The notes under the pieces: generated by a model | The model's database searches: none | Told to the model about the DNA's origin: nothing | The model's input: the letters and a program-made list of their open reading frames with translations, nothing else | Position numbers and translations under genes: made by a program | NCBI GenBank assembly: GCA_963798465.1 | Contig: CAWCTC010000001.1 | Span: 4,315 to 68,314, forward strand | Direction of reading: 5' to 3' | Length of the DNA: 64,000 nt | Source of the DNA: an uncultured bacterium | GTDB taxonomy: Bacteria; Patescibacteriota; Minisyncoccia; Phycocordibacterales; GWA1-40-21 | Shown: positions 5,165 to 47,599 of the stretch, one piece after another | Numbering within the stretch: position 1 is the first letter of the stretch | Layout: every line of letters starts with the position of its first letter

Positions 5165-5202
5165 GTATTTGATTTTTTTATTGCGATTTTTTTTGATTTT
5201 TC

Positions 5203-7529: not shown

Positions 7530-7542
7530 AGTTAAATTCTTT

Positions 7543-7655
7543 GTTCCGGCACCTAGCTACTTTCCCCTTCAGAGAGAGTATCATCGCCTCAACTGGGCTT
7601 AACTTCTGAGTTCGGAATGAGATCAGGTGTGACACCAGCGACAAAGCACCAGAAC
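7543..7655 (-). rRNA. rrf: 5S rRNA
   Basis: Minus strand: GTTCTGGTGCTTTGTCGCTGGTGTCACACCTGATCTCATTCCGAACTCAGAAGTTAAGCCCAGTTGAGGCGATGATACTCTC...GTAGCTAGGTGCCGGAAC. Contains the conserved CCGAACTCAGAAGTTAAGC core, and the two ends pair. Confidence 0.9.
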
Positions 7656-8048
7656 AAAAAATTCAACTATAAACTATCGTGAAAATACTCAAAATATTTT
7701 TTGAATTAATTCCACATAACAGGTTAAAACAAAATGATTTGTGTATTTTTAAATTTCCTAATAAGAATCGGAAATTAGTATTGCTCGCCTGAACGCATTA
7801 CTCCACTTACAGCTGCAACCTATCACCTGATCATCTCTCAGGGTCCTCAAACGAATTCTAATCTTGGGGACGGCTTCACTCTTAGATGCTTTCAGAGTTT
7901 ATCCGTTCCGAACATAGCTACTCTGCGTTGCCCTTGGCAGGAACAGCAGATAGACCAGAGGTCCGTTCAACTCGGTCCTCTCGTACTAAAGTCAAATCCC
8001 CTCAAAATTCTACGCCTGCAGTAGATAGGAGACCAACCTGTCTCACGC

Positions 8049-8543
8049 ATGTTATCACAAATTACTCTGTGCATTGGACTATAGCTTATCCGAAAATTAA
8101 ATTTCGAGACTGTTGGTGTTTAGTCTCTACGGGTATTTATGAATTTCGTTGAAGTGTCAATTTTATAAAAGAAATTAGCTGGTCGAGGGGACAGGATTTT
8201 CACCTGAATGTCTTTGCCTATTGTAACAGCAACGCTCTTCTGAGGCGTACTCCTCCGAACTTATATTTTCATTAATATATACTTCAACGAAATTCACAAA
8301 CTTCCCTCGGTATAATCCACTTTCATGGACTCCACCGATACTAATCAACTTGATCATAATATTTTTATAAATATCAGACCGCCGTGATTTGATTGTGTCT
8401 TCTCTATCTATTTATATTCAATAACAAAATTTCTCATCCTGTTATGAGTTTATAAACGAAAATTTTCTAGTTCTAATACATAACAATTCCTCGATGGGAT
8501 TCAAACTGTCCAGATAACAAATAATTACTTTGTCTTCTGAACG
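8049..8543 (-). other. Intervening sequence in 23S domain V (group I-like intron, no endonuclease ORF)
   Basis: It interrupts ...GCGAGCTGGGTTCAAACCGT | CGTGAGACAGGTTGG. This is the site homologous to E. coli ~2593, the I-CreI-type homing site. About 495 nt with long internal stems (for example 8141-8155 pairs with 8284-8298). The only ORF is 60 aa with no endonuclease motif. Confidence 0.55.
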
Positions 8544-9204
8544 GTTTGAACCCAGCTCGCGTATCTTTTTAAATGGCGAACAGCCATACCCTTGGGAGCT
8601 TCTCCACCCCCAGGATAAGATGAGCCGACATCGAGGTGCCGAACTCCGCCGTCGATATGAACTCTTAGGCGGAACTAGCCTGTTATCCCTAGAGTAGCTT
8701 TTGTCCGATAATCTTCGGCCGCGTCTAATGCGGACGGTCGGTTCACTTTGCTCTGCTTTCGCATCTGCTCGACAAGTACGTCTCGCAGTCAAGCCAGCTT
8801 TTGCCAATACACTATCGGCACGGTTTCCATTCGCGCCTAGCTGACCTTAATAGACTCCTCCGTTACTTTTTAGGAGGATAGCGCCCCACTAAAACTACCC
8901 ACCAGATACTGTTTCTATGCGTTTTTTCCGTCAAAGGTTAGAATATATATTCAAAAAGAATGGTATTTCACTGACGGATCCATCTTCCCCGAAAGAAAAA
9001 CTTCAAATCCTCCCATCTACGCTACGCATTCAAAACATATACTCAATATCAAGTTGCAGTAAAGCTTCTAGGGTCTTTTCGTCTAACTGCAGGTAACCGG
9101 CATCTTCACCGGTATTGTATTTTCACCGAGCTGATCTTCGAGACAGTTCCCCACTCATTACACTATTCAAGCGCGTCTGAACTTACCAGACAAGGAATTT
9201 CGCT

Positions 9205-9429
9205 CAACCATTCCTCAAACGTTGGACTCTATCTTAATCCTCTAATAAATTAATTAAAATTTTTTCGTAGGATCCATGACGTTGGTCTCTTGTTAACCAT
9301 GTTGCGGACTAAGTGCAAATTACTTTGCATTAGGTAGCTACTTATTTTGTGTAATGCTAATTCATTTATCAAGGCCATAAATTTGCAACAGTCCTAGTCC
9401 TTCTGAAACTTTCTTGCGAAAGTTCCAGA
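9205..9429 (-). other. Intervening sequence in 23S domain IV (small group I-like intron)
   Basis: It interrupts ...ACGGTCCTAAGGT | AGCGAAATTCCTTGTC just 3' of helix 69, about E. coli 1925-1931. Length 225 nt, no ORF. Confidence 0.55.
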
Positions 9430-9464
<35 letters not shown>

Positions 9465-10273
9465 CAGGGCTTACAACAATCACCATTACCCTTGCGGATA
9501 ACAACGTCGTTAGTTGACCTTCTGGCATTGGTCAAGTGTCACCCCCTATACATCCTCTTACGAGTTCGCAGGGAGCTGTGTTTTTGATAAACAGTTGGCA
9601 GGGATACTTTAGCTGCGGCCCAAATAAATTTGGGCAAGCCTTATCCCGAAGTTACGGCTGCTTTTTTGCCGAGTTCCTTGAAGATCTATCACTCGTTCAC
9701 CTTACTCTACTCGAGCTGACCACCTGTGTCGGTTTACGGTACGGTCTTTACATATTTAAGCTTAGAGACTTTTCTCGGAAGCTTGCTTTGATAAATCCAC
9801 CACGGCGAACCGTAATATTTTCGCTGCGCTTTCGCTTATCATTAAAGAAAGAATTCCGGATTTACCTGGAACTCGCAATTACGCCACGAACGCAAATCCA
9901 ATAATGCGCTTATCATACTAAGCTTCGTCCTCCCATCGCAATATATAAAAGTCATGGAATATTAACCATGTGTCCATCGGGTGCGGCTTTCGCCATCCCC
10001 TTAGGCCCGACTAACCCTTCGCTGATTGTCATCGCGAAGGAAACCTTGGTTTTTCGGCGTGCGGGGTTCTCACCCGCATTGTGGTTACTTGTGCCAACAT
10101 TCTTACTTCAACACGCTCCACCATGGGTCACCCCTTCGCCTTCATCGCAGAGTTGAATACTCTCCTACCAATATAAATGTCCGAAGACATTCATAGTCCT
10201 CAGTTTCGGTACCATGTTTAACCCCGATTATCTGCGGCGCAAAATCTCTTAGTGAGTGAGCTGTTACGCTATC

Positions 10274-10305
<32 letters not shown>

Positions 10306-10810
10306 TCACTGTCTGAGAAAAATCACCACCTTAAGTGTACTTAACATAGATTTAGGGACCTTAAATAGAGATCCGGGCTGTTTCCCTTTTGACCATGGGG
10401 CTTAGCCCCCACAGTCTAACTGCCGAATAATTTACTTCATGGTATTCGGAGTTTGATAGGTCTTGCGATATTTCGACCTGTCAAGACCTTCCAGTGCTCT
10501 ACCCCCAGAAGGAACATGCAACGCTAGCCCAAAAGCTATTTCGGAGAGAACCAGCTATTACCAGGCTCGATTAGCTTTTCACTTCTTACCTCAAGTCATC
10601 CGAGAGTATTGCACGGCTCACCGGTTCGGACCTCCCCTCTGATTTCTCAAAGGTTCATCCTGCTCAAGATAAGCTCGCTCTGGCTTCGGGTCTGATGTAT
10701 AAAACAAACGCGCTATTCACACTCGGTTTCCCTATGGCTCCACCCGGTAAAGGGCTTAGCCTGCTTCATACATCAACTCGTTGGCTCATTCTTCAATAGG
10801 CACGCCGTGA

Positions 10811-10920
10811 CGGACAGCACATAACAAGTCAAAATTTATAAAGTCGAAATTCGAAATAAATGCTATTGCATATCCTTTAGACTTTATGGACTTTGGACTT
10901 TTCACTGGCTTGTGCTGCCC
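10811..10920 (-). other. 23S expansion hairpin (domain II variable helix)
   Basis: GGGCAGCACAAGCC...GGCTTGTGCTGTCCG-type long hairpin of ~110 nt, inserted between conserved GGAGTCGGAGC and TCACGGCGTGCCTATTGAAG. Confidence 0.5.
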
Positions 10921-10978
10921 GCTCCGACTCCTTGTAAGCATATGGTTTCAGGTCTATTTCACTGCCCTCACCGGGCTG

Positions 10979-11015
<37 letters not shown>

Positions 11016-11228
11016 ATCTCTAAAAATATTTAGCCTTACCGGTTAGTTCCGGCAGATTCCCTCAAGCTTTTCGTGTCCTGAGGTACTCAAGAATAATAAC
11101 GGAAAAGATATTTTATTTTCGCTTACGGGACTATTACCCACTAGGGTTCTGCTTCCCAGCAGATTCTGCTAACAAAATATTTTGTAACTTTTCTCATCTA
11201 TAAATAAATGACGTCATCATCTTACTAC

Positions 11229-11520
11229 ACCGATCACAAACTTTATGTACAAATTTTTCGTACTAAATAGTGGAGGCGAGTCATAGAATTTTTTTAGTGT
11301 TCTATGTTGTTACTCGCCCGTGGAGCTTGTTAGTCACAAGACAAAAAATCGGGGAAACCGAATGATCCTGTTAAAAATAACTAACTCACCTGGATATCCA
11401 ATTTCAGAGCTGCAGCCCTGAGTGCGGTTTCCAATAATTGAGAAACCCTATTGGGAATATCCTAATGCTCTCCACTATTTAATACAAAAAATAAATTTAT
11501 ACACAAAGTTTGTGATCGGT
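11229..11520 (-). other. ~290-nt structured insertion in 23S domain I
   Basis: Closed by a 16-bp stem (11229-11244 with 11505-11520, ACCGATCACAAACTTT/AAAGTTTGTGATCGGT), then an 11-bp stem (AAATAGTGGAG/CTCCACTATTT). Lies just 3' of AGTAGCGGCGAGCGAA in rRNA sense. No ORF. Confidence 0.5.
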
Positions 11521-12212
11521 TTGGGCTGTTTCCTTTTCGCTCGCCGCTACTAGGGAAATGTTGTTACTTGCGTAACATTGTTTTCTATTCCTCCAGGTAC
11601 TGAAATGTTTTACTTCCCTGGGTATGCATATTGCATCAAGTGCAATATAACCAATAAAATTGGCTGAGTTACCTCATTCGGAAATCTCTGGATCAAAGGT
11701 TGCTAAGCACCTCCCCAAAGCTTATCGCAGCTTAACTACGTCCTTCATCGCTTATTAGAGTCAAGGCATCCACCGTACGCCCTTAAATTTCCCATTAGGA
11801 AATTTAAAAACCACAATCTTTAAAAGTTTACGTTATAAACTTTAAATTTGTTTTAACCTGTTATATGGAATCAATTCCGTATAACAGTCTTATCAAAATT
11901 AATTGATAAAATTTTTTTAAATCATTTCAATCTCTCTCCAAGAAAAATTGAATGATTCACCTGCCTGCCTATAGCATCTATAAAAGACCCAATCCACTTA
12001 TCATGGAAAATTGGTAATGCTATGACAGAATGAAGATGTAAATTTTAATTATCATCCGCTAGGATAATCTCTGAAATCTTAATCTTATTTTTCAAGTTTC
12101 AATCTTTCTGATGAAAAAATCGCCTTTCGGCGACTAGTAGACAACATCAAAGATGCATCTATATAAGCCGCTTTAAAATTGATTTCTTGTATAACATATC
12201 TGTGTAAGAACG

Positions 12213-12386
12213 AGTATATAGGAAAGTAGAATAAAGTCAAGGAAAATAAGGAGTAAAACGACTATATTTTCTTGACCCAGTGCCTTTTTCCAATATAGCC
12301 ATAAATTTCAACATTATTTTTATATAACAAATATAATGATACTAAATTATGTGGGTAAATTTTTAAGAAAATGGCGGGGGTCAAGG
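12213..12386 (-). promoter_or_regulatory. rRNA promoter (TTGACT-N16-TATACT) plus conserved upstream structured module, copy P1
   Basis: -35 at 12235-12240 and -10 at 12213-12218 (minus strand). Upstream arms are TTGACCCCCGCCATTTTC / GAAAAAGGCACTGGGTCAA and GTCAAGGAAAATA / TATTTTCTTGAC. Confidence 0.55.
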
Positions 12387-12480
12387 ATTTTACAGGTTAA
12401 AATCAGATAGTTCTCTACAGGTTATCCCCAGTTTTATTTTTACCCTTATTTTCCAATATTTTTTGATATTTTGATAATAA

Positions 12481-21656: not shown

Positions 21657-21700
21657 TTTGATTTTCAATCACGTCGCGCGACGTCCTTTAAGCGACAATC
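21657..21700 (-). promoter_or_regulatory. Two-hairpin leader motif, copy 4 (inside the r-protein operon)
   Basis: Coding strand: TGTCGC-TTAAAGGAC-GTCGCGCGAC-GTGATTGAAAATCAAA-ATG. Confidence 0.5.
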
Positions 21701-21710
21701 TCAAATTATT

Positions 21711-22244
21711 TTATGCGGTTTTCTTTCCTTCTTTTCTTCTGATGACTTCGCCTTCAAATCTTATTCCCTTTCCTTTATAAGGTTCAGGTTTTTTTATTGC
21801 TCTCAATCCTGAAGCAAAGCTGGTAATCAATTCTTTATCTATTCCCGTAATTACCACAATTCCTTTATCTAAAGACTACTTTTAATCCTGCAGGAATTTT
21901 TACTTTTACAGGATGAGAAAAACCTACTTTAAAGTGATGTCCGTAGGAGTAACGTCGGCTTTATATCCGACTCCTTCAACAATCATTCTCTTTGCCATAA
22001 CCTTTATTCACTCCTTCTACCATATTTTGAATATGAGAAGCATAAGTTCCCCAAAGCGCTTTGTTTTCCAAAGAATCTTTGACAGGTTTAAGCTGACTTT
22101 ATTTCCTTCAACAGAAATAACTATATTTTTTTTGAAAGTTCTTGAAAGTTCTCCGAGTGGACCTTTTACGCTAACAACATTGCCGTTTACTTTAATTTCG
22201 GTCTTTGCTGGTATTTCTATTCCTTTTTTTCCTAATCTTGACAT
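21711..22244 (-). CDS. rplF: 50S ribosomal protein L6 (several frame changes)
   Basis: N-terminus [37 protein letters not shown]. The C-terminus [25 protein letters not shown] is in another frame. The interior is readable only by frame-hopping. Confidence 0.8.
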
Positions 22245-22263
22245 TATATTAAAATAAACTTAA

Positions 22264-22649
22264 TTACCAGATTTTGAATAAAATTTCTCCGCCGACTTTC
22301 TGTTTGACTGCTTCTTTGTTTGAAAGAATTCCTGCTGGTGTAGAAATTATTGTCGCACCGAAACCATTTTTGAAAGGTTTGATATCTTCTGACTTTTATA
22401 TAAATTCTTCTTGAAGGTTTTGAAATTCTCTGGACATTGGTGATTTTCGGAGATTTGTCGGCTTTATAACTCAAAACAACGTCAATCATATTTCCATTTT
22501 TTGAAAAAGATTTTATATAACCCGTTCTTACAAGAACATCTGCTATGGCATACTTTTATTTTTGAGGTATAAGCTGAAACAGACTCCTTTCCTGCGAGGT
22601 TTCCATTCTTGATTCTTATTATGAAATTTCCAATAATGTCAGTTACCAT
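22264..22649 (-). CDS. rpsH: 30S ribosomal protein S8 (frame changes)
   Basis: N-terminus MVTDIIGNFIIRIKNGN. C-terminus GFGATIISTPAGILSNKEAVKQKVGGEILFKIW. The start overlaps the corrected rpsN stop (ATGGTAA). Confidence 0.75.
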
Positions 22650-22829
22650 GATGATTTTTTAATTCCGGGAATTTTTCCCTCGATTAGCAAACTCTCTAAA
22701 GCATATTCTGCAAAGATCAAAGTCTCTCATATATCCGTGTTTTCTTCCACAACGGAAACATCTCCTCACTACTCTTGAGGCAAATTTTATCGGTTTTTTT
22801 GATCTTGCAACTGTTGATTTCTTAGCCAT
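22643..22829 (-). CDS. rpsN: 30S ribosomal protein S14 type Z (zinc-binding); 1-nt indel near the 3' end
   Basis: MAKKSTVARSKKPIKFASRVVRRCFRCGRKHGYMRDFDLCRICFREFAN. Removing one A from GGGAAAAATTCCC restores the canonical ...GKIPGIKKSSW ending. Confidence 0.85.
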
Positions 22830-22873
22830 TTTGTAAAATGTAAAATAAAAAGCTTCAAAAAGCTTGTTGCAAT

Positions 22874-23049
22874 ATACTAGCAAGAAGCTCTTACAAAGTC
22901 AATGAAATAACGAGTGCATTCCCGACTATATTTCATTGACTCCGTCACTATTTCAGCAAGCACAAAATAATCACTAAAATTGGTGAAAGAAAACCTTCAT
23001 CTAAAACTGCACAAAAGCTCAATTTGATAAAAATAGTGTTGGGGGTCAA
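22874..23049 (-). promoter_or_regulatory. Promoter (TTGACT-N17-TAGTAT) plus conserved upstream structured module, copy P2, in front of rpsN
   Basis: -35 at 22897-22902 and -10 at 22874-22879 (minus strand). About 75 percent identical to the copy at 27143-27314. Confidence 0.55.
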
Positions 23050-23056
23050 TAAAAAA

Positions 23057-23080
23057 GGGCCGCACTTTTACATGCGGCCC
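23057..23080 (-). terminator. Rho-independent terminator
   Basis: GGGCCGCATGTAAAAGTGCGGCCC followed by TTTTTT on the minus strand. Confidence 0.7.
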
Positions 23081-23142
23081 GGGAAATCTTCATCGGATTC
23101 TTGTTCTTTGCCCGACTTTTAAGTGAGGCAAAATTACTCCGA

Positions 23143-23346
23143 TTAGTTTCCTTTTTTTTCTATTCTTTCTTTCATCTTGCTGAAATACTTCTCAGCAGAT
23201 TTTTTTCCCATCTCAAGGAGCATTAGATTTAACTCCTTCACTTCCTCAGAAGACAGACCTTTGGTAAAGTCCATGTTTTTCTTTATCTCATCCATCTTTT
23301 GTGAGACAGAGCGGTCCATGGACTCTTGCAGAATCCTTTCATACAT
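23143..23346 (-). CDS. Small Lys/Glu-rich helical hypothetical protein inserted between rplE and rpsN
   Basis: MYERILQESMDRSVSQKMDEIKKNMDFTKGLSSEEVKELNLMLLEMGKKSAEKYFSKMKERIEKKGN (67 aa), bracketed by two terminators. The longer track ORF (to 23505) overlaps rplE out of frame. Confidence 0.3.
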   Translation of the reverse strand: MYERILQESMDRSVSQKMDEIKKNMDFTKGLSSEEVKELNLMLLEMGKKSAEKYFSKMKERIEKKGN

Positions 23347-23366
23347 AACAGCATATAAACAAAAAA

Positions 23367-23384
23367 AACCGCTTTTCAGCGGTT
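23367..23384. terminator. Terminator after rplE
   Basis: AACCGCTTTTCAGCGGTT with A/T runs on both sides. Confidence 0.6.
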
Positions 23385-23398
23385 TTTTAAAATTTTTC

Positions 23399-23977
23399 TT
23401 ATTCTCTCTTTTTCTTTCCTTTTCTTCTTTTTTCTTCTTCACCTTTTTTGAATGGAAATCCGAGATATTCCAAGAAAGTTTTTGCTGAAATTTTATCTTT
23501 GACATTCGTCACTATTGTGACGGCGAGTCCGAAAACATCTTTCAATTCTTCATCGGATGATTCAGGAAAAACTGAATTTTCTTTCATACCGATAGTGAAA
23601 TTGCCCATATTATCTATAGCAGTGCACTGAAAGCCCTCTGAAATCTTTTGTTCTTGGAAGAGCAATGTAAACAAGCTTATTTAGAAAATCAAACATTCTT
23701 TGTCCGCGGAGAGTGACTTGGTATCCGACTGGATCTCCTTCTCTGACTTTGAAAGTTGCGACTGATTTCTTTGCAACTTTAAGCATGACTTTCTGTCCGG
23801 AAATTTTTGTCAAGCCTGTCATCAACAATTTTATTTTTGTTCTTATCTTTGAAAGAGCCGGTACCAGAACTCAAAACAACCTTCAAAACTTTTGGAGTTT
23901 GCATTTTGTTCTTTAAGCCCAAAGTTGTTCTTTAGTGCTTCAAAGGCTTTATTCTGTTTTTCTTTTAATGATATCAT
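23399..23977 (-). CDS. rplE: 50S ribosomal protein L5 (frame changes)
   Basis: Pieces: [35 protein letters not shown] / [49 protein letters not shown] / [20 protein letters not shown]...[12 protein letters not shown]...[10 protein letters not shown]. Confidence 0.8.
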
Positions 23978-23994
23978 CTCTTTTTTATTAAATA

Positions 23995-24293
23995 TTAAAT
24001 CTCTTTTCCTGTTTTTCTGTTGATTCTTACTCTATTTCTCGCCGATAGTTTTCTTTCCGACTCTCGCTCTCTTTCCGTTTTCATTTATCATGACATTTGA
24101 AGCGTGATAGGCATTGCTTTGTCCACAACCTGACCTTTTGCACCTGACTGTTTTGCTTTCTGGTGTTTCTTGCTGATATTTATTCCTTCTATCAAAACTT
24201 TATTTACTTTCGGATATGCGGCAACAACTTTCCGGTTTTGCCTTTGTCTTTTCCTGCTATAACTATTATATTGTCTCCTTTTTTAATTTTCAT
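23995..24293 (-). CDS. rplX: 50S ribosomal protein L24 (frame changes)
   Basis: MKIKKGDNIIVIAGKDKGKTGKV...YPKVNKVLIEGINISKKHQKAKQSGAKGQVVDKAMPI... Ends ...RVRINRKTGKEI in a different frame. Confidence 0.7.
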
Positions 24294-24328
24294 TTTTTTC
24301 TTTTGACTTTATGGACTTTCGACTAATT

Positions 24329-24700
24329 TTAGACTATTTCCGGCGCAAGGGAAGCGATTTTCTTGAAACCCAATTCTGCAATCTCTCTTGGAATCGGACC
24401 GAAAACTCTTCCGGCAATCGGATCCTGTTTTCCTTTTTCAATAATGACAACTGCATTCTCATCAAATCTTATATATGAACCGTCAGCTCTTCTGAATGGT
24501 TTTCTTTGTCTGACAACAACTCCGTAAAGAATATCTTTTTTCTTTGCCAATTTTCTCGGCTCAGCTTTCTGAACAGACAAGACGACAACTTCGCCGATAC
24601 TCGCCCATCTCTTTTTTGAACTTCCAAGCACTCTTAAAAATTCTGCCGATTTTGGCGCCTGAATTATCTGTTATATTTACTATTGATCTGTCTTGTATCA
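24329..24700 (-). CDS. rplN: 50S ribosomal protein L14 (one frame change near codon 23)
   Basis: MIQDRSIVNITDNSGAKIGRIFK then (shifted) VLGSSKKRWASIGEVVVLSVQKAEP...IRFDENAVVII...GRVFGPIPREI. Confidence 0.85.
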
Positions 24701-24719
24701 TTTTATTATTTAAAAATTA

Positions 24720-24953
24720 TTATTTCTTCAAAACTTTGAATCTTTTGTTTTTTGAAATCGGTCTTGTTTCGATTATTTCAATAATCTCTCCTTCTTTGCA
24801 TGTATTTCCTTCATCGTGAGCCATGATTTTATTCTGTTTCTTGATGAATTTTCCATACTTCGGATGTTTTTTGAAAGAATCGATGGAAACAACAACGGTA
24901 TCCTTCATTTTTGCTGAATACAACTTCCTTTCAATACTTTTCCATTATTCTTT
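24720..24953 (-). CDS. rpsQ: 30S ribosomal protein S17 (start uncertain)
   Basis: ...KLYSAKMKDTVVVSIDSFKKHPKYGKFIKKQNKIMAHDEGNTCKEGEIIEIIETRPISKNKRFKV. An ATG (MEK...) lies upstream in another frame. Confidence 0.8.
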
Positions 24954-24989
24954 TTTTACTGATTTTTTTTCCATATTTTTATATTATAA

Positions 24990-25180
24990 TTATGCTTTTT
25001 TCTCTTCCTTTAAGAATCGTAAGAATTCTGGGCAATTTCTTTTCTTAAATTTCTTCCGTTTTACATTTTTCATTTTGCTTCTTGAAGTTCCAAATCTGAA
25101 ATTGCTCAAAGCAGTTGCTTTTTCTGAAAGCTCTTTTTCAAGTTCGCCGTTGTTTTTTTTCTTAAATCTTTTAATTTCAT
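24990..25180 (-). CDS. rpmC: 50S ribosomal protein L29 (frame changes at A-runs)
   Basis: MKLKDLRKK / NNGELEKELSEKATALSNFRFGTSRSKMKNVKR... / ...ILKEEKKA. Confidence 0.65.
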
Positions 25181-25617
25181 ATATATTGTATATTAAAATC
25201 TTCGCTATAACTTTCGTTGTTGACTGGAAACTTCGTTCCTCCTTTTCTCAGCATTTCTCTTGCTGAAGGCACATCAACATCCGTCAACTTCAAAAAGAAC
25301 TCTTCCCGGCTTTACGATAGCGACATAACCTTGCAATTCTCCTTTTCCTTTTCCCATTTTAACTTCGGCTGGTTTCTGAGTATATGGATGATCTGGGAAA
25401 ATTCTTGTCCAAATTTTTCCGCTCTTTGCACATTGAGTGAGCAATAGCTTTTCTGGCGGCTTCAATCTGATTTGATTTAATTCTTCCCGCTCATATAGCT
25501 TTCAAACCAAAAGAACCGAAAGAAACTTTTGTTCCTCGTGTTTCTACGCCGACTCTTGTCAGGATTTTCCCTGAAAGTATGAGCTTTTCTGAATTTTACT
25601 TTTTTTGGCATTAACAT
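25177..25617 (-). CDS. rplP: 50S ribosomal protein L16 (multiple frame changes)
   Basis: [13 protein letters not shown]..., ...[10 protein letters not shown]..., ...[23 protein letters not shown]... The stop overlaps the rpmC start (ATGA). Confidence 0.75.
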
Positions 25618-25644
25618 ATTTGTTTATCTGGTTTCTTTAGTAAA

Positions 25645-26311
25645 TTATTTCTTTTCTTTATTGAAAATATCACCTTTGTAAATCCAGACTTTTGATACCG
25701 ATATCTCCGTATGTCATATGAGCTTTTTCTTGCGCATAATCAATATCTGCTCTGAAAGTCTGAAGCGGAACTCTTCCTTTTTTCATTTCTTCTGATCTTG
25801 CGATTTCTGCACCGCCGAGTCTTCCTCCGCAATAAACTCTGATTCCTTTGACATCGCGATTTGCCATGACTTTTTCAATAGTCTGTTTCATCACTCTTCT
25901 GAAAGGCAATCTTTTTTCCAAACCTTCGGCAATCATTTGGGCAACTATAGCTGCATTTGATTCTGGTGATTTGATTTCTTCAACATCCAATTTGAAATCT
26001 GCTGGAATTGAAAGTTTGTTCTTTGCGGCAAATTTCATTATATCTTTTCTCAAGTTTGACGGAACCTTCTCCGCTTCTGCCGATAACAACTCCGGGTCTT
26101 GAAGTTTTAATGATCAGTCTGAATGTCTTGTCGTTTCTTTCCATTTCAATGGAGCCGACGTATTGGCCTCGCATTTTCTTTTCGAGAAATTCTCTGAGCA
26201 TCATATCGGCTCTCAAAAATCTTTGTAATTTTTGCCAGTAGAAAACCATCGGGATTTCCAATCTCTGATGATTCCCAGTCTATGTGAATATGGATGTACT
26301 GTGTGTGACAT
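25645..26311 (-). CDS. rpsC: 30S ribosomal protein S3 (frame changes)
   Basis: MSHTVHPYSHRLGIIRDWKSRWF..., ...RPGVVIGRSGEG..., ...[57 protein letters not shown]. Confidence 0.8.
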
Positions 26312-26315
26312 AAAA

Positions 26316-26747
26316 TTATTTTTCTGATTTTTTAACTTTCTTTTCTGTTACGGCTTTTACAGCTTCTTTTTTATTTTCTACTTTAACTGCTTTTTTACCG
26401 GTTTAACAGGCATATTATCTATTGTATCCAAACTAACAAAAACATGGCTTGTTCTTTTGTTTATAGGATAAGCCATTCCTCTTGCTCTTGGCATTCTTCT
26501 TTTCAAAACTACTCCTTCATCTACTCTGAATTCTTTTACAAAAAGTTTGTCTGCTGGAATATTAAAATTGTGTCGATGCATTTGCAACCGCGGAATCAAT
26601 CAAATCTGAAAGTGGCTTTGCAGCTCTTTTAACCAAAAAGTTTAAAGTGTTTTTCGCATCCTCTACTTTCTTTCCTTTCACTAGATTGGCGACTAATCTT
26701 ACTTTTCTTGGTGACTGTCTATAATCATTTAATTTTGCGGTAATCAT
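26316..26747 (-). CDS. rplV: 50S ribosomal protein L22 (frame changes; 3' end uncertain)
   Basis: MITAKLNDYRQSPRKVRLVANLVKGKKVEDAKNTLNFL... / ...FVKEFRVDEGVVLKRRMPRARGMAYPINKRTSHVFVSL. Confidence 0.8.
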
Positions 26748-26750
26748 ATA

Positions 26751-27092: not shown

Positions 27093-27142
27093 AAAATAAT
27101 TTGCATAAATAAAACAAGAAGCTCATAAGAGCTCGAATTAGC

Positions 27143-27314
27143 ATATTAGCAAAATTACGAATAATGTCAAGGAAAATAACGAGCACAGCGACCATATTTT
27201 CCTGACCCCGACACTATTTCAACCGAAATAAAATAATCATTGAAATTGATAAAAGAAAACTCCCATCAAAAACTGCACAGAAATCAACTGATAAAAATAG
27301 TGCAGGGGGGTCAA
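27143..27314 (-). promoter_or_regulatory. Promoter (TTGACA-N16-TAATAT) plus conserved upstream structured module, copy P3, in front of rpsS
   Basis: -35 at 27165-27170 and -10 at 27143-27148 (minus strand). Arms are 27166-27178/27195-27206 and 27203-27219/27296-27314. Confidence 0.55.
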
Positions 27315-27352
27315 CAGCAAAATGGTTTGTTTACGTGGCAAAGAACACTAAA

Positions 27353-29403: not shown

Positions 29404-29422
29404 GCGAAGGTCTGACCTTCGC
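29404..29422 (+). repeat. REP hairpin a (GCGAAGGTCTGACCTTCGC)
   Basis: Palindromic hairpin 7 nt beyond the RAYT stop codon. Confidence 0.75.
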
Positions 29423-29428
29423 AAGAAA

Positions 29429-30121
29429 TTATTTAATATCTATTTTCTCTGGATTAAAATTTAGCCACTCAAATAAATTATTTTTAAAATTTTCTTTCGA
29501 CTCAAAATATTCCGGAAAAACTTTTTTATCTAAAATATCATTTTCTAATCTTTTCAAACCAAAATAATCCAAATAACTTGAATAAGTGTAAACATTTAAA
29601 AAATCCTTAGCTTTTTCAAAATCGCTTATACCAACATCTTTCCAATCAGATTGAATTAATTTTATTGGATTTAAGTGTATATATGAATATAAAAATTTTA
29701 GATAATTGTCATTATTGGCATGCTTTGCTTGAAACCTTCCTTGAAACAAGGCGCCACTCCTTTCATATTTTTTATTAAAATACATTGAGTATGAAGTTAA
29801 TAATTTTTGAAAAAAATTAGATATGCCGCCAGGAATTTTTTCACTAACCAATAAATGGAAGTGGTTCGGCATTAAGCACCAGGCACCAATATTAATCAGA
29901 TCTTTTTCTCTTGTATTTGCTAGGTTTGCGAAGGTCTGGCCTTCGCAGACATCATTTCTCTTCATTTCCCTAACATCTGTAGGCAAACTACTATTGCAAA
30001 TTTTTAACAAAAATAAAAATCGATCATAATCATATTTGTCCATAAAAATATCTCTTTTATCAACTCCCCTATTATAAATATGATAATATTCGCCTTCTGA
30101 AAATTTTATTTTTCTGTTCAT
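29429..30121 (-). CDS. REP-associated tyrosine transposase (RAYT; IS200/Y1 HUH family)
   Basis: 230 aa. EGEYYHIYNRGVDKRDIF, HUH motif CLMPNHFHLLV, catalytic Tyr region LYSYIHLNPIK. Flanked by REP hairpins. Confidence 0.8.
   Translation of the reverse strand: MNRKIKFSEGEYYHIYNRGVDKRDIFMDKYDYDRFLFLLKICNSSLPTDVREMKRNDVCEGQTFANLANTREKDLINIGAWCLMPNHFHLLVSEKIPGGISNFFQKLLTSYSMYFNKKYERSGALFQGRFQAKHANNDNYLKFLYSYIHLNPIKLIQSDWKDVGISDFEKAKDFLNVYTYSSYLDYFGLKRLENDILDKKVFPEYFESKENFKNNLFEWLNFNPEKIDIK
29928..29946 (+). repeat. REP hairpin b, inside the RAYT coding sequence
   Basis: GCGAAGGTCTGGCCTTCGC, translated in-frame as ..VCEGQTFAN.. of the RAYT. Confidence 0.75.
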
Positions 30122-30171: not shown

Positions 30172-30190
30172 GCGAAGGTCTGGCCTTCGC
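30172..30190 (+). repeat. REP hairpin c
   Basis: GCGAAGGTCTGGCCTTCGC, upstream of the RAYT start. Confidence 0.75.
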
Positions 30191-30222
30191 GGTTTTTTAT
30201 TTTGAACAATTTTCGCTAACTT

Positions 30223-30241
30223 GCGAAGGTCTGGCCTTCGC
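30223..30241 (+). repeat. REP hairpin d
   Basis: GCGAAGGTCTGGCCTTCGC, with the same TAACTT...AAAAT flanks as copy a. Confidence 0.75.
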
Positions 30242-30256
30242 AAAATTTTGACAACA

Positions 30257-34623: not shown

Positions 34624-34642
34624 GCGAAGGTTTCACCTTCGC
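34624..34642 (+). repeat. REP hairpin e (variant GCGAAGGTTTCACCTTCGC) within a longer terminator hairpin
   Basis: Embedded in AAAGGACAAAAAA...TTTTTTGTCCTTT (34607-34664), just after the wHTH gene stop. Confidence 0.6.
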
Positions 34643-34661
34643 AGTTTTTATTTTTTGTCCT

Positions 34662-36016: not shown

Positions 36017-36049
36017 CATGGCATCAAAAAATAAAGGAAAAAAGAAAGA

Positions 36050-36153
36050 CCCCGTAAAGAATTTTATAAGAACAATTGTTGACTAAACTTAAATACTGAA
36101 ATTAACAAAAAATATCATGTCAAAATTAAAACGAAGTGAAAATTCACACAGGG
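36050..36153 (+). promoter_or_regulatory. Start-codon cassette, copy 2
   Basis: CCCCGTAAAGAATTTT ... ATG(36117) ... GAAAATTCACACAGGG. Confidence 0.6.
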
Positions 36154-38423
36154 CAAGAAAAACAAATTCAAAATCAGAATATAAAAACGATGTATTAAGC
36201 AATATAAAAAATGAAACTAAACAAGGAATATTGGCTGTCACTTTTTTAGTTTTGGGGATAATTTTTATTTTAGCTTCAATCAAGACCGGAAATTCTGGAC
36301 ATGAAGTCTATTACGCGGGACCAGTCGGAAAAGGAACTTATGATTTTCTTTCCACTCTTTTTGGTATCGGATATTTTCTTATTCCGCTATTTTTTCTCAT
36401 GTTCAGCATTTCTTTTTTTAAGGCAGAAGAACGAGAATTCAATAAGTTAAAAATCTTCGGCGGAATATTATTTTTTGTCTCCGGTCTTGGAATGATTGAT
36501 CTTGTTTCAAGACAATATTGGACTGCGCAAGGAGGCAAATTTGGCTGGCTCATTTCCACTCCTCTTTCAAGCATGTTCGGCTTCTATGCAAGTGTAATTA
36601 TTTTATTCGCACTTCTTATAATTTCTTGTCTCATTTTATTTGAAACGAGAATTACAGTTGAGTCACTTTTATTCTGGAGAAAAGAAAAAGAAACGAGGAC
36701 GAAGACGAAGATGAGGATATAAAGGTAATTGCCGAAAATTGAAGAGGAGGAAAAAAAGAGAAAGAAATTGAAAAAGAAGAAAAGAAAAGAAAAAGAAACA
36801 ACAAAAGGAGCGTTCATAAAAAAGAATGAGGAAGAGGAATCGGGAATAAAATTTAATCCGAAAATGGTGGGAAATACAAAATATGTTCCTCCCCCACTTT
36901 CTCTGCTTGAAGATGATAAAGGAAGAATGGTTTCCGGTGATATAAAAGCAAATGCAAATATTATAAAAAGAACTTTGCAAAATTTCGGCATTGATGTCGA
37001 AATGGATGAAGTTTCAATCGGACCATCAGTCACAAGATATGCACTCAAGCCAGCCGAGGGAGTGAAAATTTCAGAATTATCGGATTGCAAAATGATCTTT
37101 CACTTGCTCTTGCCGCGCACCCTCTCAGAATTGAAGCTCCGATTCCCGGCAAATCGCTTGTCGGAATAGAAATACCGAACTCCGTAAAATCAACAGTCGG
37201 TCTTGCTGCACTTATTGGTTCCGAAGAATTCCAAAAATCGGACAAGCCGCTTCTTGATAACACTTGGAAAAGGAATTTCCGGAAAATCACATTATGCAAA
37301 CTTGGCAAAAATGCCGCACGTTCTTGTTGCGGGAGCAACTGGTTCAGGAAAATCTGTGACAATTCACGCAATCATCACTTCCCTTCTTTATCGAAATTCG
37401 CCGGAAAATTTGAAATTTATAATGGTTGATCCAAAAAGAGTCGAGCTTACTCTATACAACAAAATTCCCCACCTCCTCACTCCGGTCATCACCGATGCAA
37501 AGAAAACTATTCTTGCTTTGAAATGGGCAACAAAAGAAATGGATCGCAGATATGATGTACTTGAATCCATGCGGTAAAAGATATAGATTCATATCACAAA
37601 AATATTTTTGCTCCAGCACTCAAGAAAAATTGAGGAACTGAAGAAAAAAGGAACTTATAATCCGGAAAAAAATGTTGTGCCGGAACCGATGCCATTATAT
37701 TGTCATAATAATAGACGAGCTCGCCGATATTATGATGGCTTATCCGCGAGAGCTTGAAGCCGGAATCGTTCGTCTTGGCTCAAATGAGCCGAGCTGTCGG
37801 TATCCACTTATACTTTCCACCCAAAGACCTTCCGTGAATGTCATTACCGGTATCATCAAAGGCAAATATTCCAGCAAGAATCGCCTTCAGGTGGTCTCCC
37901 AGATAGATTCAAGAACAATTTTGGATACCACAGGCGCGGAAAAACTTCTCGGTGCTGGAGATATGCTTTATATCGGCGGAGAAATGTCAAAGCCCGTGAG
38001 AATCCAGTCTGCATTCGTTTCTGAAAAAGAAGTTAAAGATGTTGTGAAATATTTGGTTGATTCATACAAGAGATGAGCTTATCGGCGGAGAAATTGATTT
38101 AGCAGAAGTCGCAAAAGGCGGAGATGAAAGCGGAGGCGTCGGAGTATTCAATAGTCTTGAAGATGACGATGGGATGAATTGTACGAGCAAGCAAAAGAAG
38201 AAGTTTTAAAAGCTGGAAAAGCATCAACTTCATATATACAGAGAAAACTTCGAGTCGGATATGCGCGAGCGGCAAGACTTGATTGATTTATTGGAACAGA
38301 AGAGGCGTTATAGGTCCTGGCGACGGTGCAAAAGCGAGAGAAGTCATCGGAAGTGGAGAAAATATTGAAAAATCTAAGATGCAGAAGAAGTGGATGAAAA
38401 TGCACAAAGAAGATCAGATATAG
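36117..38423 (+). CDS. ftsK: DNA translocase FtsK (multiple frame changes / in-frame stops)
   Basis: N-terminal TM domain (36117-36722). Then ...[10 protein letters not shown]...[61 protein letters not shown], Walker [40 protein letters not shown]. The gamma domain reads [26 protein letters not shown]. Read across at least 5 frames or fragments. Confidence 0.85.
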
Positions 38424-38883: not shown

Positions 38884-39979
<1,096 letters not shown>

Positions 39980-40141: not shown

Positions 40142-40159
40142 TTAAAAATTATTATAAAA

Positions 40160-40182
40160 GGGCGGCACCTTCGGTGCCGCCC
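40160..40182. terminator. Bidirectional terminator (GGGCGGCACCTTCGGTGCCGCCC family)
   Basis: Identical 23-nt hairpin at 53972-53994. Near-identical at 5138-5160. Confidence 0.8.
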
Positions 40183-40197
40183 TTTTATAATTTATAT

Positions 40198-40770
40198 TTA
40201 TTTATTCGCTCTGCCTATATAATCCCCTGTCTCCGTATTTATAGTTATTGTTTCTCCTTCAGTAATAAAAAGCGGACCATTTATGACTGCACCTGTTTCA
40301 AGCGTGATTTGTTTCTGTCCTCCGCTTGATGTATCGCCTTTTACCGCTGGTGGAGCTTCGGTGACTTTCAAATCTACTTTAATTGGAAGTTTTACTCCAA
40401 TAACTTTATCATCAAAAATCATCGTCTCAACAAGAGAATTTGTCTTCATAAATTTTGCGGGATTGCCGATCATCTCTTCTTCCAACTTGAATCTATTTGA
40501 TGGATCCTTTGGATCGCAAAACCAAAATTCGCCTTTGCTCTTGTAAAGAAATTTTGCATCTTTATATTCAATCTCAGCTTCCTCTATTTTTTCAGACTGA
40601 TGAAAAGAAACTTCGGTGATTTTTCCCGTTATCAAATTTTTAAGTTTCGTAGCATTTACCGGCTTTCTCATCTGTTTTCTGAAAACGTGAGAATGCAAAA
40701 CTTCATAAGGCTGTCCTTCATAAAGAATGATTTTTCTTTCAACTGCTTCACTGTATTCCAATATTGCCAT
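40198..40770 (-). CDS. efp: Elongation factor P
   Basis: 190 aa. ...YEGQPYEVLHSHVFRKQMRKPVNATKLKNLITGK..., ...VTEAPPAVKGDTSSGGQKQITLETGAVINGPLFI. Confidence 0.92.
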   Translation of the reverse strand: MAILEYSEAVERKIILYEGQPYEVLHSHVFRKQMRKPVNATKLKNLITGKITEVSFHQSEKIEEAEIEYKDAKFLYKSKGEFWFCDPKDPSNRFKLEEEMIGNPAKFMKTNSLVETMIFDDKVIGVKLPIKVDLKVTEAPPAVKGDTSSGGQKQITLETGAVINGPLFITEGETITINTETGDYIGRANK

Positions 40771-43418: not shown

Positions 43419-43458
43419 GAAGCAATTTTATCATAAAATGAAGTCTAATAAAATCAAA

Positions 43459-43483
43459 AGAGCGGCGCCTACGGCGCCGCTCT
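43459..43483. terminator. Bidirectional terminator
   Basis: AGAGCGGCGCCTACGGCGCCGCTCT with A/T flanks. Confidence 0.75.
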
Positions 43484-43490
43484 TTTGATT

Positions 43491-44915
43491 TTATTGAAGC
43501 GCTTTTTTAAAAAATTCGAATAAATCTTCAATTTTTATTCTATCTTGTGTTCCCGTATCTCTGTCTCTTACCGTGACCATATTGTCTTTTTCAATTGTTT
43601 CAAAATCTACAGTGACACAATAAGGAGTTCCGATTTCATCTTGTCTTCTGTATCTCTTGCCGATGTTTCCATTGTCATCAAACTCACACATGAAATCTTT
43701 TTTCAAAGATTCATATATTTCTTTTGCTTTTTCTACAAGAATCGGCTTATTTTTAAGAAGAGGAAACACTGCAATTTTGATCGGTGCCAATTTTTTCGGC
43801 AATTTCAAAAAAATTCTTTTTTCTCCGCCGAGATTGTCTTCTGTATATCCATAATCTAAAAACATGAGCATAAGTCTTCCGAGTCCAGCTGAGGTTTCAA
43901 CAATATGCGGAATATATCTTTCCTTTGTCTCTTCGTCATAATAACTCAAATCAACTCCGGAAAATTTTGAATGTTGGGACAAATCCCAATCACCTCTCGC
44001 ATGAATACCTTCAACTTCTTCAAAATCTCCAAAACAGGCAAAGTCATATTTAATATCATAAGCATCCGAAGCATAATGAGCTAATTTTTCATGCTTGTAC
44101 CAGGTAAGTTTTTCTTTTGGAATTTCATTTTCAAGATACCATTTCATTCTTACCTCTTTCCACATATCATATTTTTCTTTTGTATCTTTCTTGTGTATAA
44201 AATATTGCATTTCCATTTGTTCAAATTCTCTTGTTCGAAAAATAAATTGTCTTGCCGCAATTTCATTTCTAAAAGCCTTTCCAATCTGTGCAATACCAAA
44301 AGGTATTTTTGGATGCAGTGAATCCAATGTGTTTTTGTAATCCAAATATATTCCCCCGCAAGTTTCCGGTCTCAAATAAACAACATTTTCTTCACTCAAA
44401 GCTTCGGTTGGCGAACCGAAATTTGATTTTATCATCAGAGAAAACTTTTTTGCAGGAGTGATATCCGTTTCTCCACAATTTGTACATTTTAATTTTTTCT
44501 CTGCTCTAAGTTTGTCTAATTCTTTATTTATAAAATCGATCGGCATTTTATCTGCAGAAATTCCAAATCCTTCAAGAATTTGATCTGCTCGCATTCTGTT
44601 GTGACACTTCCTGCATTCAATGAGCGGATCGTCAAAATTTCCAACATGTCCAGAAGCAACCCATGTCGTTGGGTGCATAAAAATTGCACTGTCCAAAAGT
44701 AAGATATCTTCTCTGTCTTGAATCATGCTTTTCTGCCAAGAATCCCTTATATTATTTTTTAAAAGAGTCCCGTAGTGTCCATAATCATAAACTCCACCAA
44801 GTCCTCCGTATATTTCAGAACCTTGAAATACAAAACCTCTTCTTTTACAAAGTGATATCAGTTCCTCCATTCTTTGATTTTTTTCTGCCTTAGCAGGAAT
44901 ATCTTTTTTACTCAT
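43491..44915 (-). CDS. glyQS: Glycine--tRNA ligase (alpha2 homodimeric type)
   Basis: 474 aa. ...RRGFVFQGSEIYGGLGGVYDYGHYGTLLKNNI..., FRNEIAARQFIFRTREFEQMEMQYF, GLGRLMLMFL, anticodon-binding C-terminus. Confidence 0.92.
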   Translation of the reverse strand: MSKKDIPAKAEKNQRMEELISLCKRRGFVFQGSEIYGGLGGVYDYGHYGTLLKNNIRDSWQKSMIQDREDILLLDSAIFMHPTTWVASGHVGNFDDPLIECRKCHNRMRADQILEGFGISADKMPIDFINKELDKLRAEKKLKCTNCGETDITPAKKFSLMIKSNFGSPTEALSEENVVYLRPETCGGIYLDYKNTLDSLHPKIPFGIAQIGKAFRNEIAARQFIFRTREFEQMEMQYFIHKKDTKEKYDMWKEVRMKWYLENEIPKEKLTWYKHEKLAHYASDAYDIKYDFACFGDFEEVEGIHARGDWDLSQHSKFSGVDLSYYDEETKERYIPHIVETSAGLGRLMLMFLDYGYTEDNLGGEKRIFLKLPKKLAPIKIAVFPLLKNKPILVEKAKEIYESLKKDFMCEFDDNGNIGKRYRRQDEIGTPYCVTVDFETIEKDNMVTVRDRDTGTQDRIKIEDLFEFFKKALQ

Positions 44916-47557: not shown

Positions 47558-47564
47558 AAGAAAA

Positions 47565-47589: not shown

Positions 47590-47599
47590 TTTTCTTCGC

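Follow-up and report, generated by a model that had tools for sequence, protein, structure and literature searches.

A probable mobile hairpin element that targets and rebuilds the -35 box of ribosomal promoters in Paceibacteria

Introduction

We examined a 64,000-nt stretch of contig CAWCTC010000001.1 (hereafter the window), which belongs to a low-GC genome of the Paceibacteria (Patescibacteria, or Candidate Phyla Radiation, CPR); its closest S19 homologues carry the names Paceibacterota, Taylorbacteria or Minisyncoccia. On the minus strand of the window, a hairpin-rich module of about 145 nt recurs directly upstream of the promoters of rpsS, rpsN and the 23S rRNA gene. An initial annotation had read this module as a common control region of translation-apparatus operons, a view that is contradicted by sister strains, in which the same promoters are free of the module and the difference is a clean indel of 144–147 nt. 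The module is very likely a mobile insertion and not ancestral regulatory DNA. Our preferred reading, to which we assign a probability of roughly 55%, is that it is a non-autonomous mobile element of Paceibacteria, without an open reading frame (ORF), that would move as single-stranded DNA (ssDNA) and be aimed at TTGAC by an internal guide. The specific mechanism, guided transfer of ssDNA by an HUH enzyme, is held more tentatively, at slightly worse than even odds. CPR genomes are tiny and are thought to be poor in mobile elements, and their transcription signals have barely been studied.

Results

Three copies at three promoters

The copies were located with a covariance model built from seven copies, which matched the minus strand at 27314->27166 (rpsS), 23049->22898 (rpsN) and 12384->12236 (23S). 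Both the motif matches and the model agree with the initial annotation on the three minus-strand copies and their TTGACCCCC starts, and the three sigma70-type promoters were found as it had described them (Table 1). In the window, exact TTGACCCCC occurs only at the three copy starts, and allowing one mismatch gave 4 matches with 5.9 expected by chance. The core motif GTCANGAAAATATRGTCG, at up to three mismatches, matched 4 times with 0.29 expected, the three real copies having 0–2 mismatches. The rpsS and rpsN copies are 79% identical, slightly above the earlier estimate of ~75%. A TTGAC-like pentamer directly precedes each element on its 5' side, and the element itself ends in TTGAC. At promoters, the old -35 box is thereby stranded upstream, and the element's own TTGAC, with the T-rich tract that precedes it, stands at the right distance from an unchanged spacer and -10 box.

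Empty sites in related genomes

For comparison, homologues of S19 and ndk led to relatives that share the gene order and the promoters of the window (loci outside the window are designated by L numbers). At the 23S site, L025–L028, which come from four different samples, are empty: their allele joins ...CTGTAAAATCCTTGAC directly to TTTATTCTAC..., the flanks are identical at 223/225 positions (99.1%), and the window has 144 additional bases. L023, which shares strain and sample with the source genome, has the 23S copy. For rpsN, the L001 sequence is ...GGCCCTTTTTTATTGAC followed by TTTATAAGAGC..., where the window has 147 additional bases between flanks that are 96.3% identical; at the rpsS site, L001 reads ...CATTTTGCTGTTGAC followed by ATTATTCGTAATTTTGCTAATAT..., with 144 additional bases in the window and flanks 83.7% identical. 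At all three sites the extra DNA begins right after TTGAC and ends in TTGAC, the empty sites hold a single TTGAC, and the direct repeats that bound the inserts are TCCTTGAC (23S), ATTGAC (rpsN) and TTGAC (rpsS). As these indels are clean and bounded by TTGAC, the module is either an insertion into the -35 hexamer or was seamlessly excised from it. Judged by these alignments, the spacer, the -10 box and the leader are ancestral, and the right end of the element restores the -35 hexamer.

Occupancy is sporadic. The rpsS and rpsN promoters lack the element in the close relatives L001–L004 and in the more distant L005 and L037–L041, and the 23S promoter lacks it in L024 (more distant) as well as in L025–L028. 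L001, empty at rpsS and rpsN, is 93% identical to the window in the ribosomal-protein (r-protein) operon; L010 and L020, which are filled, are 77–78% identical, and the empty L039 and L040 are 78–82% identical, so that sporadic occupancy spans lineages 72–93% identical in this operon. The presence at orthologous promoters across related genomes by which a conserved cis-regulatory region is recognised was thus not seen for rpsS, rpsN or 23S.

Anatomy and covariation

All copies are 136–150 nt long except that in L011 (92 nt). Full-length copies are 62–87% identical in pairs (67–79% among the three in the window) and have a common layout: a left end CCCC..., an imperfect hairpin 1 (~105 nt), an internal hexamer GTCAAN, hairpin 2 and a right end ...TATTTTNNTTGAC. 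The two inverted repeats that had been reported to meet at GTCA are real, the outer being CCCC..CACTATTT / AAATAGTG..GGGG and the inner GTCANNAAAATA / TATTTTNNTTGAC. Hairpin 1 comes in two subfamilies, one with CACTATTT/AAATAGTG arms and an 'R type' with GCCATTTTC/GAAAAAGGC-like arms; the 23S copy is of the second kind, its outer arms being exchanged for complementary GCCATTTTC / GAAAAAGGC just as the initial annotation had stated. In the rpsS copy, the loop of hairpin 1 is ~75 nt long and includes a stretch conserved within the subfamily (GTTTTCTTT..CAATTT..ATGATTATTTT). In its hairpin 2, the conserved loop T(A/G)GTCGC...GCTCGT includes an apical mini-stem. The hairpin opens with GTCAGG, six bases that we propose as the internal guide, and closes with TTGAC, five bases that serve as the -35 box.

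Pairing is kept despite sequence change, as had been claimed. Across 19 copies from several genomes, 96.9% of cells in the proposed helices are paired and 15/24 pairs show compensatory changes, compared to 38–59% paired when the partner is slid by 1–3 columns; as the alignment was fitted to the model, the paired values are somewhat inflated. Helix 3, in hairpin 2, is 99.6% paired, with 6/12 compensatory pairs. The hairpin-2 loop is nearly invariant (TAGTCG-ministem-CTCSTT), and its apical mini-stem covaries (GC..GC, GT..AC, GGG..CCC, GTTG..CAAC). The stability of the ssDNA fold is only modest (z-scores of -1.4 to -2.8), so the case for structure rests on covariation.

No terminal inverted repeats were found in any register (left end CCCC..., reverse complement of the right end GTCAAGGAAAATAA), and the element contains no ORF; a mini-ORF in the hairpin-1 loop (MxVFFxQF) was discarded since neither its start codon nor its frame is conserved across copies. 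No convincing promoter or terminator was found inside the element. The candidate internal promoters considered, namely the upstream TTGACC as a -35 box for P1, a divergent promoter at the internal TTGACC of the opposite strand and the TATAAT inside R-type copies, have spacings that are wrong or not conserved. Counts of G.T and A.C pairs, as an indicator of the functional strand, were uninformative (8 vs 3, mostly from one degenerate copy). With Rfam 15, only the large-subunit (LSU) and 5S rRNAs passed the gathering threshold, and permissive scans of the rpsS and 23S copies stayed at chance level. Literature searches found no described equivalent in Patescibacteria. Considering both the missing Rfam match and the literature, the family appears to be undescribed, although of a known general kind (small non-autonomous hairpin elements). 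Exact targeting and rebuilding of a -35 box, and an apparently single internal guide, would be its unusual traits.

Internal hexamer, flanks and strand

In most copies, variants included, the right end N'TTGAC is reverse-complementary to GTCAAN, the internal hexamer between the hairpins. Among 18 curated copies, 10 have TTGAC as the left flank (the others have TTTAC, CTTAC, TTCAC, TGGAC, TTGAT, ATCAC or CTTCA), and at positions -1 to -6 this flank matches the right end in 11–17 of the 18; many of these left-flank/right-end pairs are imperfect. The GTC/GAC of the '-35' is made up of alignment pairs 154-204, 155-203 and 156-202, and these vary jointly in non-canonical copies: one variant set has internal GTAAT, right end ATTAC and left flank ATCAC, and another has internal TTAAG, right end CTTAA and left flank CTTCA. 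As the right-end hexamer covaries with the internal hexamer, it is probably not purely a duplication derived from the target, and the repeated TTGAC at the right end may be a motif encoded by the element.

If the ends are joined, TATTTTNNTTGAC followed by CCCC..CACTATTT becomes one continuous complement of AAATAGTG..GGGG followed by TCAANNAAAATA, with the insertion point in the middle of a ~30-bp stem. The competition between the two repeats for the GTCA segment, remarked on in the initial annotation, is explained by this arrangement. With regard to strand, GC skew on the plus strand is negative across the window except in one 8-kb bin, and all three copies have the G-rich minus strand as their top strand, which for these co-oriented genes serves as lagging-strand template. 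With three copies and gene orientation as a confounder, this is weakly consistent with movement as ssDNA.

Distribution in other genomes

An exact-pattern scan for the hairpin-2 core in Genome Taxonomy Database (GTDB) species genomes and metagenome contigs, with an estimated ~0.03 chance matches, gave 7 genome loci, each in a CPR metagenome-assembled genome and the named ones all of Paceibacteria type, and 9 metagenome contigs, of which two duplicate genome loci. The covariance model recovered every pattern locus and added further copies, making ~20 copies in other Paceibacteria, the majority of them joined to a -35 box (Table 1). The bias to translation-apparatus promoters noted in the initial annotation is real, as other Paceibacteria have copies at 16S, 23S, rpsN, rpsS and tRNA promoters, and its prediction of further copies at 16S promoters was borne out in three loci. 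The canonical arrangement is a right-end TTGAC with a -10 hexamer 16–17 nt further on (14/16 TTGAC-ended copies, read by eye). The initial annotation had also reasoned that copies near unrelated genes or in random orientation would point to a plain repeat, and such copies occur: some lie antisense inside operons, and others are neighbours of nrdA-nrdB, pilT and mraY.

L022 has three elements head to tail, each new left end lying directly past the TTGAC of the preceding right end. Decayed copies lie just upstream of intact ones in L009 and L020 and occur also in L016 and at rpsS in L010. Together with the antisense intra-operon copies and the sporadic occupancy, the tandem arrays and decayed copies look like the signs of a mobile repeat. 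The window contains 114 TTGAC pentamers in all, ~16 of them intergenic and outside the elements; the 3 occupied are exactly those of the 23S, rpsN and rpsS promoters.

L010 also holds a composite at 7540-7680 and 930-1112 (native coordinates), where an antisense element is followed by a sense-direction hairpin-2-like stem-loop, GATTTTTA-TATTCGCTTTGCTCAT-TAAAAATC, in the order hairpin 2, hairpin 1, inverted hairpin 2. This stem-loop directly precedes the rpsS ATG, and a homologous ~45-nt stretch precedes rplF. A link to phages was considered and rejected as chance: the scan of viral contigs gave 3 distinct matches with ~2 estimated by chance, and L029 is a lambda-like tail module.

Table 1 Features of the window and copies of the element in other genomes
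Feature	Position or locus	Strand	Remarks
Element copy, rpsS promoter	27166..27309	-	144 nt; CCCCCTGCAC... to ...TTATTTTCCTTGAC; 145.6 bits; absent in L001-L004
Left-flank TTGAC, rpsS copy	27310..27314	-	Original -35 pentamer (target), now parted from its -10 box
Hairpin 1, rpsS copy	27206..27309	-	Arms 27309-27295 CCCC(C)TG-CACTATTT / 27219-27206 AAATAGTG-TC-GGGG
Hairpin 2, rpsS copy	27166..27206	-	GTCAGGAAAATA (27206-27195) pairs with TATTTTCC(T)TGAC (27178-27166)
rpsS promoter, TTGACA-N16-TAATAT	27143..27170	-	Spacer and -10 box identical in L001; -35 pentamer from element right end
Element copy, rpsN promoter	22898..23044	-	147 nt; 159.8 bits; absent in L001-L004; begins directly after terminator of upstream operon
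Left-flank TTGAC, rpsN copy	23045..23049	-	Target copy; ATTGAC recurs at right end
rpsN promoter, TTGACT-N17-TAGTAT	22874..22902	-	Promoter scan
Element copy, 23S rRNA promoter	12236..12379	-	144 nt; 73.2 bits; R-type hairpin-1 subfamily
Left-flank TTGAC, 23S copy	12380..12384	-	TCCTTGAC recurs at right end
23S promoter, TTGACT-N16-TATACT	12213..12240	-	Followed by boxA-like GTTCTTACACA
RAYT-like Y1 transposase gene	29429-30121	-	Pfam Y1_Tnp 2e-9; NCBIfam REP_Tyr_transpos 44.6 bits (cutoff 80)
Copies before 16S rRNA	L008, L015, L017		Downstream RNA confirmed by Rfam
Copies before 23S rRNA	Window, L009		Downstream RNA confirmed by Rfam
Copies before rpsN	Window, L010, L020		
Copies before rpsS	Window, L010		Decayed copy in L010
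Copy before tRNA	L012		Downstream RNA confirmed by Rfam
Copy before obg	L013		
Copy before RRM RNA-binding-protein gene	L022		
Non-promoter copies, rpsH-rplF and rpsS 5' untranslated region (UTR)	L010	antisense	
Non-promoter copy inside operon, rplN-rplX	L037	antisense	
Non-promoter copy, nrdA-nrdB interval	L011		
Non-promoter copy beside pilT	L007		
Non-promoter copy upstream of mraY	L014		Wrong spacing
Lone hairpin 2 near ftsK	L039		

A RAYT-like gene in the window

The window encodes a Y1 transposase resembling the REP-associated tyrosine transposases (RAYTs; REP, repetitive extragenic palindromic sequence). It is syntenic and single-copy (PG_binding - RAYT - PKD - rpsS) in L037-L041 and is absent at this position in L001–L005. 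REP-like hairpins GCGAAGG-N5-CCTTCGC lie at 29404-29430, 29928-29954, 30172-30198, 30223-30249, 34624-34650 and 56015-56041, one of them in frame inside the RAYT-like gene (CEGQTFA). The hairpins that flank its orthologues are lineage-specific: GCGAAGG..CCTTCGC in the window, and CCCGAGGAC.., GCCCGAGGGG.. or TACCAAGGTC.. in relatives. The GCGAAGG REP was absent from the 28 loci checked.

Other features of the window

The minus strand reads, in order, a peptidoglycan (PG)-binding protein, the RAYT-like Y1 gene, a PKD protein, a 46-aa ORF and the rpsS copy of the module; rpsS-rplV-rpsC-rplP-rpmC-rpsQ-rplN-rplX-rplE, a small ORF, a terminator and the rpsN copy; and rpsN-rpsH-rplF-rplR-rpsE-rplO-secY-adk-map, two ORFs, ndk, a terminator, the 23S copy and 23S-5S. 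Many essential genes are split by frameshifts (rplV, rpsC, rplP, rplN, rplE, rpsH, rplF, ftsK, recA, ileS and glyA), at 21700-26750 and also, for example, at 36117-37577, 39095-39631 and 59978-61343. These genes are intact in the relatives L001–L005, and L036, a contig assembled from short reads of the same strain, has the serine hydroxymethyltransferase intact (416 aa). The frameshifts most likely reflect an error-prone long-read assembly of the window and not true pseudogenes, so single-base details such as the lengths of C runs are to be treated cautiously.

The AGCT-N5-AGCT leader hairpins described in the initial annotation were found a few bases past the predicted transcription starts of rpsS (27119-27134, minus strand, GAGCTCTTATGAGCTT) and rpsN (22845-22862, minus strand, CAAGCTTTTTGAAGCTT). 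They are kept in relatives (L001, L005, L010, L020, L037-L040) whether or not the element is present, and might stabilise the 5' end of these leaders or regulate them. In L001, ~100 extra nucleotides (9885-9995) follow the AGCT hairpin in the rpsS 5' UTR and are lacking in the window, a further leader indel. Upstream of the 23S promoter, CTGGGGATAACCTGTAGAGAACTATCTGATTTTAACC (12395-12440, minus strand) recurs as CTGGGGATAAGCTGTAGAAAACTATTTCATTTTAAGCC before the 16S promoter in L017 and is kept in the empty L025–L028; possibly rRNA promoters truly have this upstream region in common.

The 23S rRNA gene itself (7755-11799, minus strand) is 4045 nt long, compared to 2925 positions in the model, with large insertions that include one of 273 nt near model position 283 and one of >100 nt near position 583. 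The ORFs inside it have no Pfam domain, and the gene is unlinked from 16S. Large expansions of rRNA genes are typical of CPR. Near-identical GC-rich intergenic hairpins, AAAAGGGCGGCACC-GAAG-GTGCCGCCCTTTT, at 5134-5177, 40156-40199, 43456-43499, 47562-47605 and 53968-54011 look like bidirectional intrinsic terminators with one common sequence. Finally, two ~120-nt stretches at 3359-3477 and 36044-36160, 74–94% identical and with the same start (MLSSKQSENSHGARK-like), span the upstream region and the first codons of a glycosyltransferase gene and of ftsK.

Discussion

In the mechanism that we propose, the internal GTCAAN would act as a guide, pairing with either the target in the left flank or the right end of the element. 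The element would move as ssDNA, its excision resealing the donor seamlessly and its re-insertion falling 3' of TTGAC, by way of a circular form in which the ends are joined. A structure-specific enzyme supplied in trans would be needed, most like the HUH Y1 'peel-and-paste' enzymes of IS200/IS605 insertion sequences and their derivatives, the palindrome-associated transposable elements (PATEs) and REPINs (REP doublets forming hairpins). A consensus TTGAC with a T-rich tract upstream would choose the strongest promoters, which resemble the right end itself; insertion there would be harmless, because the -35 box and the upstream T-rich tract are restored, and insertions hitting genes would be lost. 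Together, target choice, harmlessness and loss from genes would account for the concentration at rRNA, r-protein and tRNA promoters. More speculatively, high transcription might expose ssDNA upstream of strong promoters.

Several observations weigh against this reading. No mobilising enzyme was identified, the only transposase-like gene in the window being the RAYT-like Y1 gene, which is a poor candidate for the mobiliser since it has its own REP hairpins, is syntenic and is present in genomes that are empty at rpsS and rpsN. Among the copies found (in the 64-kb window and the loci examined) there is no near-identical pair, so recent transposition was not directly seen. Distant genomes have the same stem variants at the same locus, namely ATG/CAT at rpsN (window, L010, L020) and GG/CC with a bulged T at rpsS (window and L010), which hints that the insertions are old and were precisely lost several times, or that the guide directed re-insertion at the same sites. 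Gain in the lineage of the window and precise loss in the sister lineage appear about equally parsimonious. The geometry also departs from that of IS608: the element would use one Watson-Crick guide of 5–6 nt for both ends, where IS608 has two 4-nt guides with non-canonical pairs; its putative cleavage sites lie inside or at the foot of stems, not outside the hairpins; and hairpins 1 and 2 are unlike in size and sequence. A target-site duplication is another possible reading of the 5–6-bp direct repeat. Lastly, the occupancy of 3 of ~16 intergenic TTGAC sites, all at translation-apparatus promoters, leaves room for a selected function.

Such a function is the core of the first alternative, in which a cassette of mobile origin has been kept for changing the output of rRNA, r-protein and tRNA promoters, as a portable upstream module. 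Possible means are a T-rich tract at -37 to -46 that acts like an UP element, a regulator site in the hairpin-2 loop or insulation from upstream DNA. The enrichment at translation-apparatus and stable-RNA promoters in several genomes and the choice of exactly the 23S, rpsN and rpsS sites in the window would fit, and the copies, although equidistant (62–87%), keep their length, stems and nearly invariant loop TAGTCG..CTCSTT, which suggests long-term constraint. However, the requirements of mobility could equally cause that constraint, sister strains and several other lineages run the same promoters without the element, copies decay (L016, rpsS of L010), and others lie antisense inside operons or beside unrelated genes. 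We regard regulation as the reason for its presence as unlikely, although the element may have acquired a secondary effect on promoter strength. A combined version, in which a guide-programmed ssDNA homing element with an unrecognised enzyme also came to serve as a portable promoter cassette, tuning the transcription of rRNA and r-protein genes, seems to us a rather long shot; if true, strain-level gain and loss would vary growth-rate control in minimal genomes.

The direct repeats raise the question of a conventional miniature inverted-repeat transposable element (MITE), mobilised by a DDE transposase that prefers NTTGAC and duplicates 5–6 bp of target, with hairpins that are incidental or bound by the transposase. 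A 5–8-bp direct repeat flanks all three window copies, most copies have a left flank identical to the right end at -1 to -6, and the size and the tandem or nested arrangements are MITE-like. Against this stand the lack of terminal inverted repeats in any register, the covariation of the terminal hexamer with the internal one, the many imperfect flank/right-end pairs, the clean empty sites, which would need a precise excision that is rare for DDE elements, and the fact that no parent insertion sequence was seen among ~40 loci. We consider a DDE element quite unlikely.

The joined-end stem would suit a cassette recombined at a hairpin site, where the folded strand serves as a duplex site for a tyrosine recombinase acting at TTGAC, in analogy to attC or to attP(+) of the CTX phage. 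Together, the right and left ends are complementary to the internal segment without a break, which would place the crossover halfway along the ~30-bp stem; structure is kept and sequence is not, as in attC, and stem bases are bulged; tandem arrays and precise presence or absence occur; and the similarity of target and right end extends partly beyond the core. This is nevertheless very unlikely, considering that the feet of the stem are GTCAAN/NTTGAC with no RYYYAAC/GTTRRRY boxes, that neither an integrase nor an attI or Xer-type site was found in the window or the examined loci, and that many dispersed sites set by 5–6 nt are unusual for tyrosine recombinases. Least probable is a structured RNA, whether a transcribed small RNA, a leader switch as the initial annotation had considered, or an omega-RNA-like guide RNA reading into the promoter: covariation is strong in three helices including the apical mini-stem, some copies lie in transcribed regions (the L010 5' UTR, intergenic spacers) and PATEs often encode omega RNAs (PMC10055086), but even permissive Rfam scans gave no match, the element has no convincing promoter or terminator of its own, the G.T and A.C counts give no strand preference, no tnpB or iscB gene was seen, copies occur in both orientations relative to transcription, and the rpsN copy starts right past a strong terminator.

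The mobile ssDNA element that we favour would have several implications. Filled and empty alleles pin down the real promoters of rRNA and r-protein operons. That ~145 nt of conserved, structured upstream DNA is parasitic or accessory rather than regulatory calls for caution in motif-based regulon prediction. Insertion into a -35 box with its restoration would be a distinct strategy, a bacterial counterpart of the eukaryotic 'safe-haven' elements at RNA polymerase III (Pol III) genes. A single Watson-Crick guide common to target and right end, if confirmed, would amount to a simple version of IS200/IS605-type target selection, and possibly one that can be reprogrammed. And if the element alters promoter strength, its presence or absence among strains would give a direct handle on variation in growth-rate control in uncultured organisms.

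Comparison with known systems

The position of the element, directly upstream of the -35 box at rRNA and r-protein promoters and with an adjacent A/T-rich tract, is that of the UP element and Fis sites of E. coli rrn P1; unlike these, the element is not conserved at orthologous promoters, is mobile and occurs in other contexts and in both orientations. With integron attC sites and ORF-less cassettes it has in common that structure prevails over sequence, that a folded single strand would serve as the site, that a core is repeated at the boundaries, and that tandem arrays and precise excision occur. It differs in having no R/L box consensus, IntI or attI and in being dispersed at many promoters rather than in one array.

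Correia elements, the MITEs of Neisseria, are likewise intergenic and of similar size (~100–155 bp), supply or rebuild promoter boxes and vary in presence between strains, as does the present element. Their termini are inverted repeats of 26 bp, the duplicated target is TA, and their promoters arise by chance juxtaposition. Compared to these and other promoter-bearing MITEs, our element has no inverted repeats at its ends, and the -35 box that it targets is one already in place, for which it provides an exact replacement.

Closer are the REP and REPIN sequences of RAYTs. Hairpin 1 is REPIN-like, with two inverted arms of ~20 nt around a spacer; the element is intergenic and conserved in structure more than in sequence; and a RAYT-like gene lies in the window and is syntenic in relatives. 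However, the hairpins beside that gene are, in each genome, GC-rich REP hairpins of its own; they are unrelated to the element, which in addition has a second, non-REP hairpin with a conserved loop and inserts site-specifically at TTGAC.

The IS200/IS605 family and its PATEs offer the most points of likeness. The element differs in that its right-end motif equals the target motif and in that no cognate TnpA or TnpB was identified. IS608 inserts 3' of a short target that is kept in the left flank, recognises it by base-pairing with an internal guide, reseals the donor seamlessly and forms a circular junction (PMC5934647), and PATEs without an ORF exist (PMC10055086). Like PATEs, the element has hairpin-rich ends, no ORF and no terminal inverted repeats. 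The target is kept 5' of the insert in each case (TTAC for IS608, TTGAT for ISDra2, TTGAC here), and would be paired with an element-internal guide, which we infer for our element from its sequence and with a geometry unlike that of IS608. The top strand on the presumed lagging-strand template (n=3 here, confounded by gene orientation) would be weakly consistent with this family as well, and further common traits are the seamless empty sites and the tandem insertion beside an existing right end.

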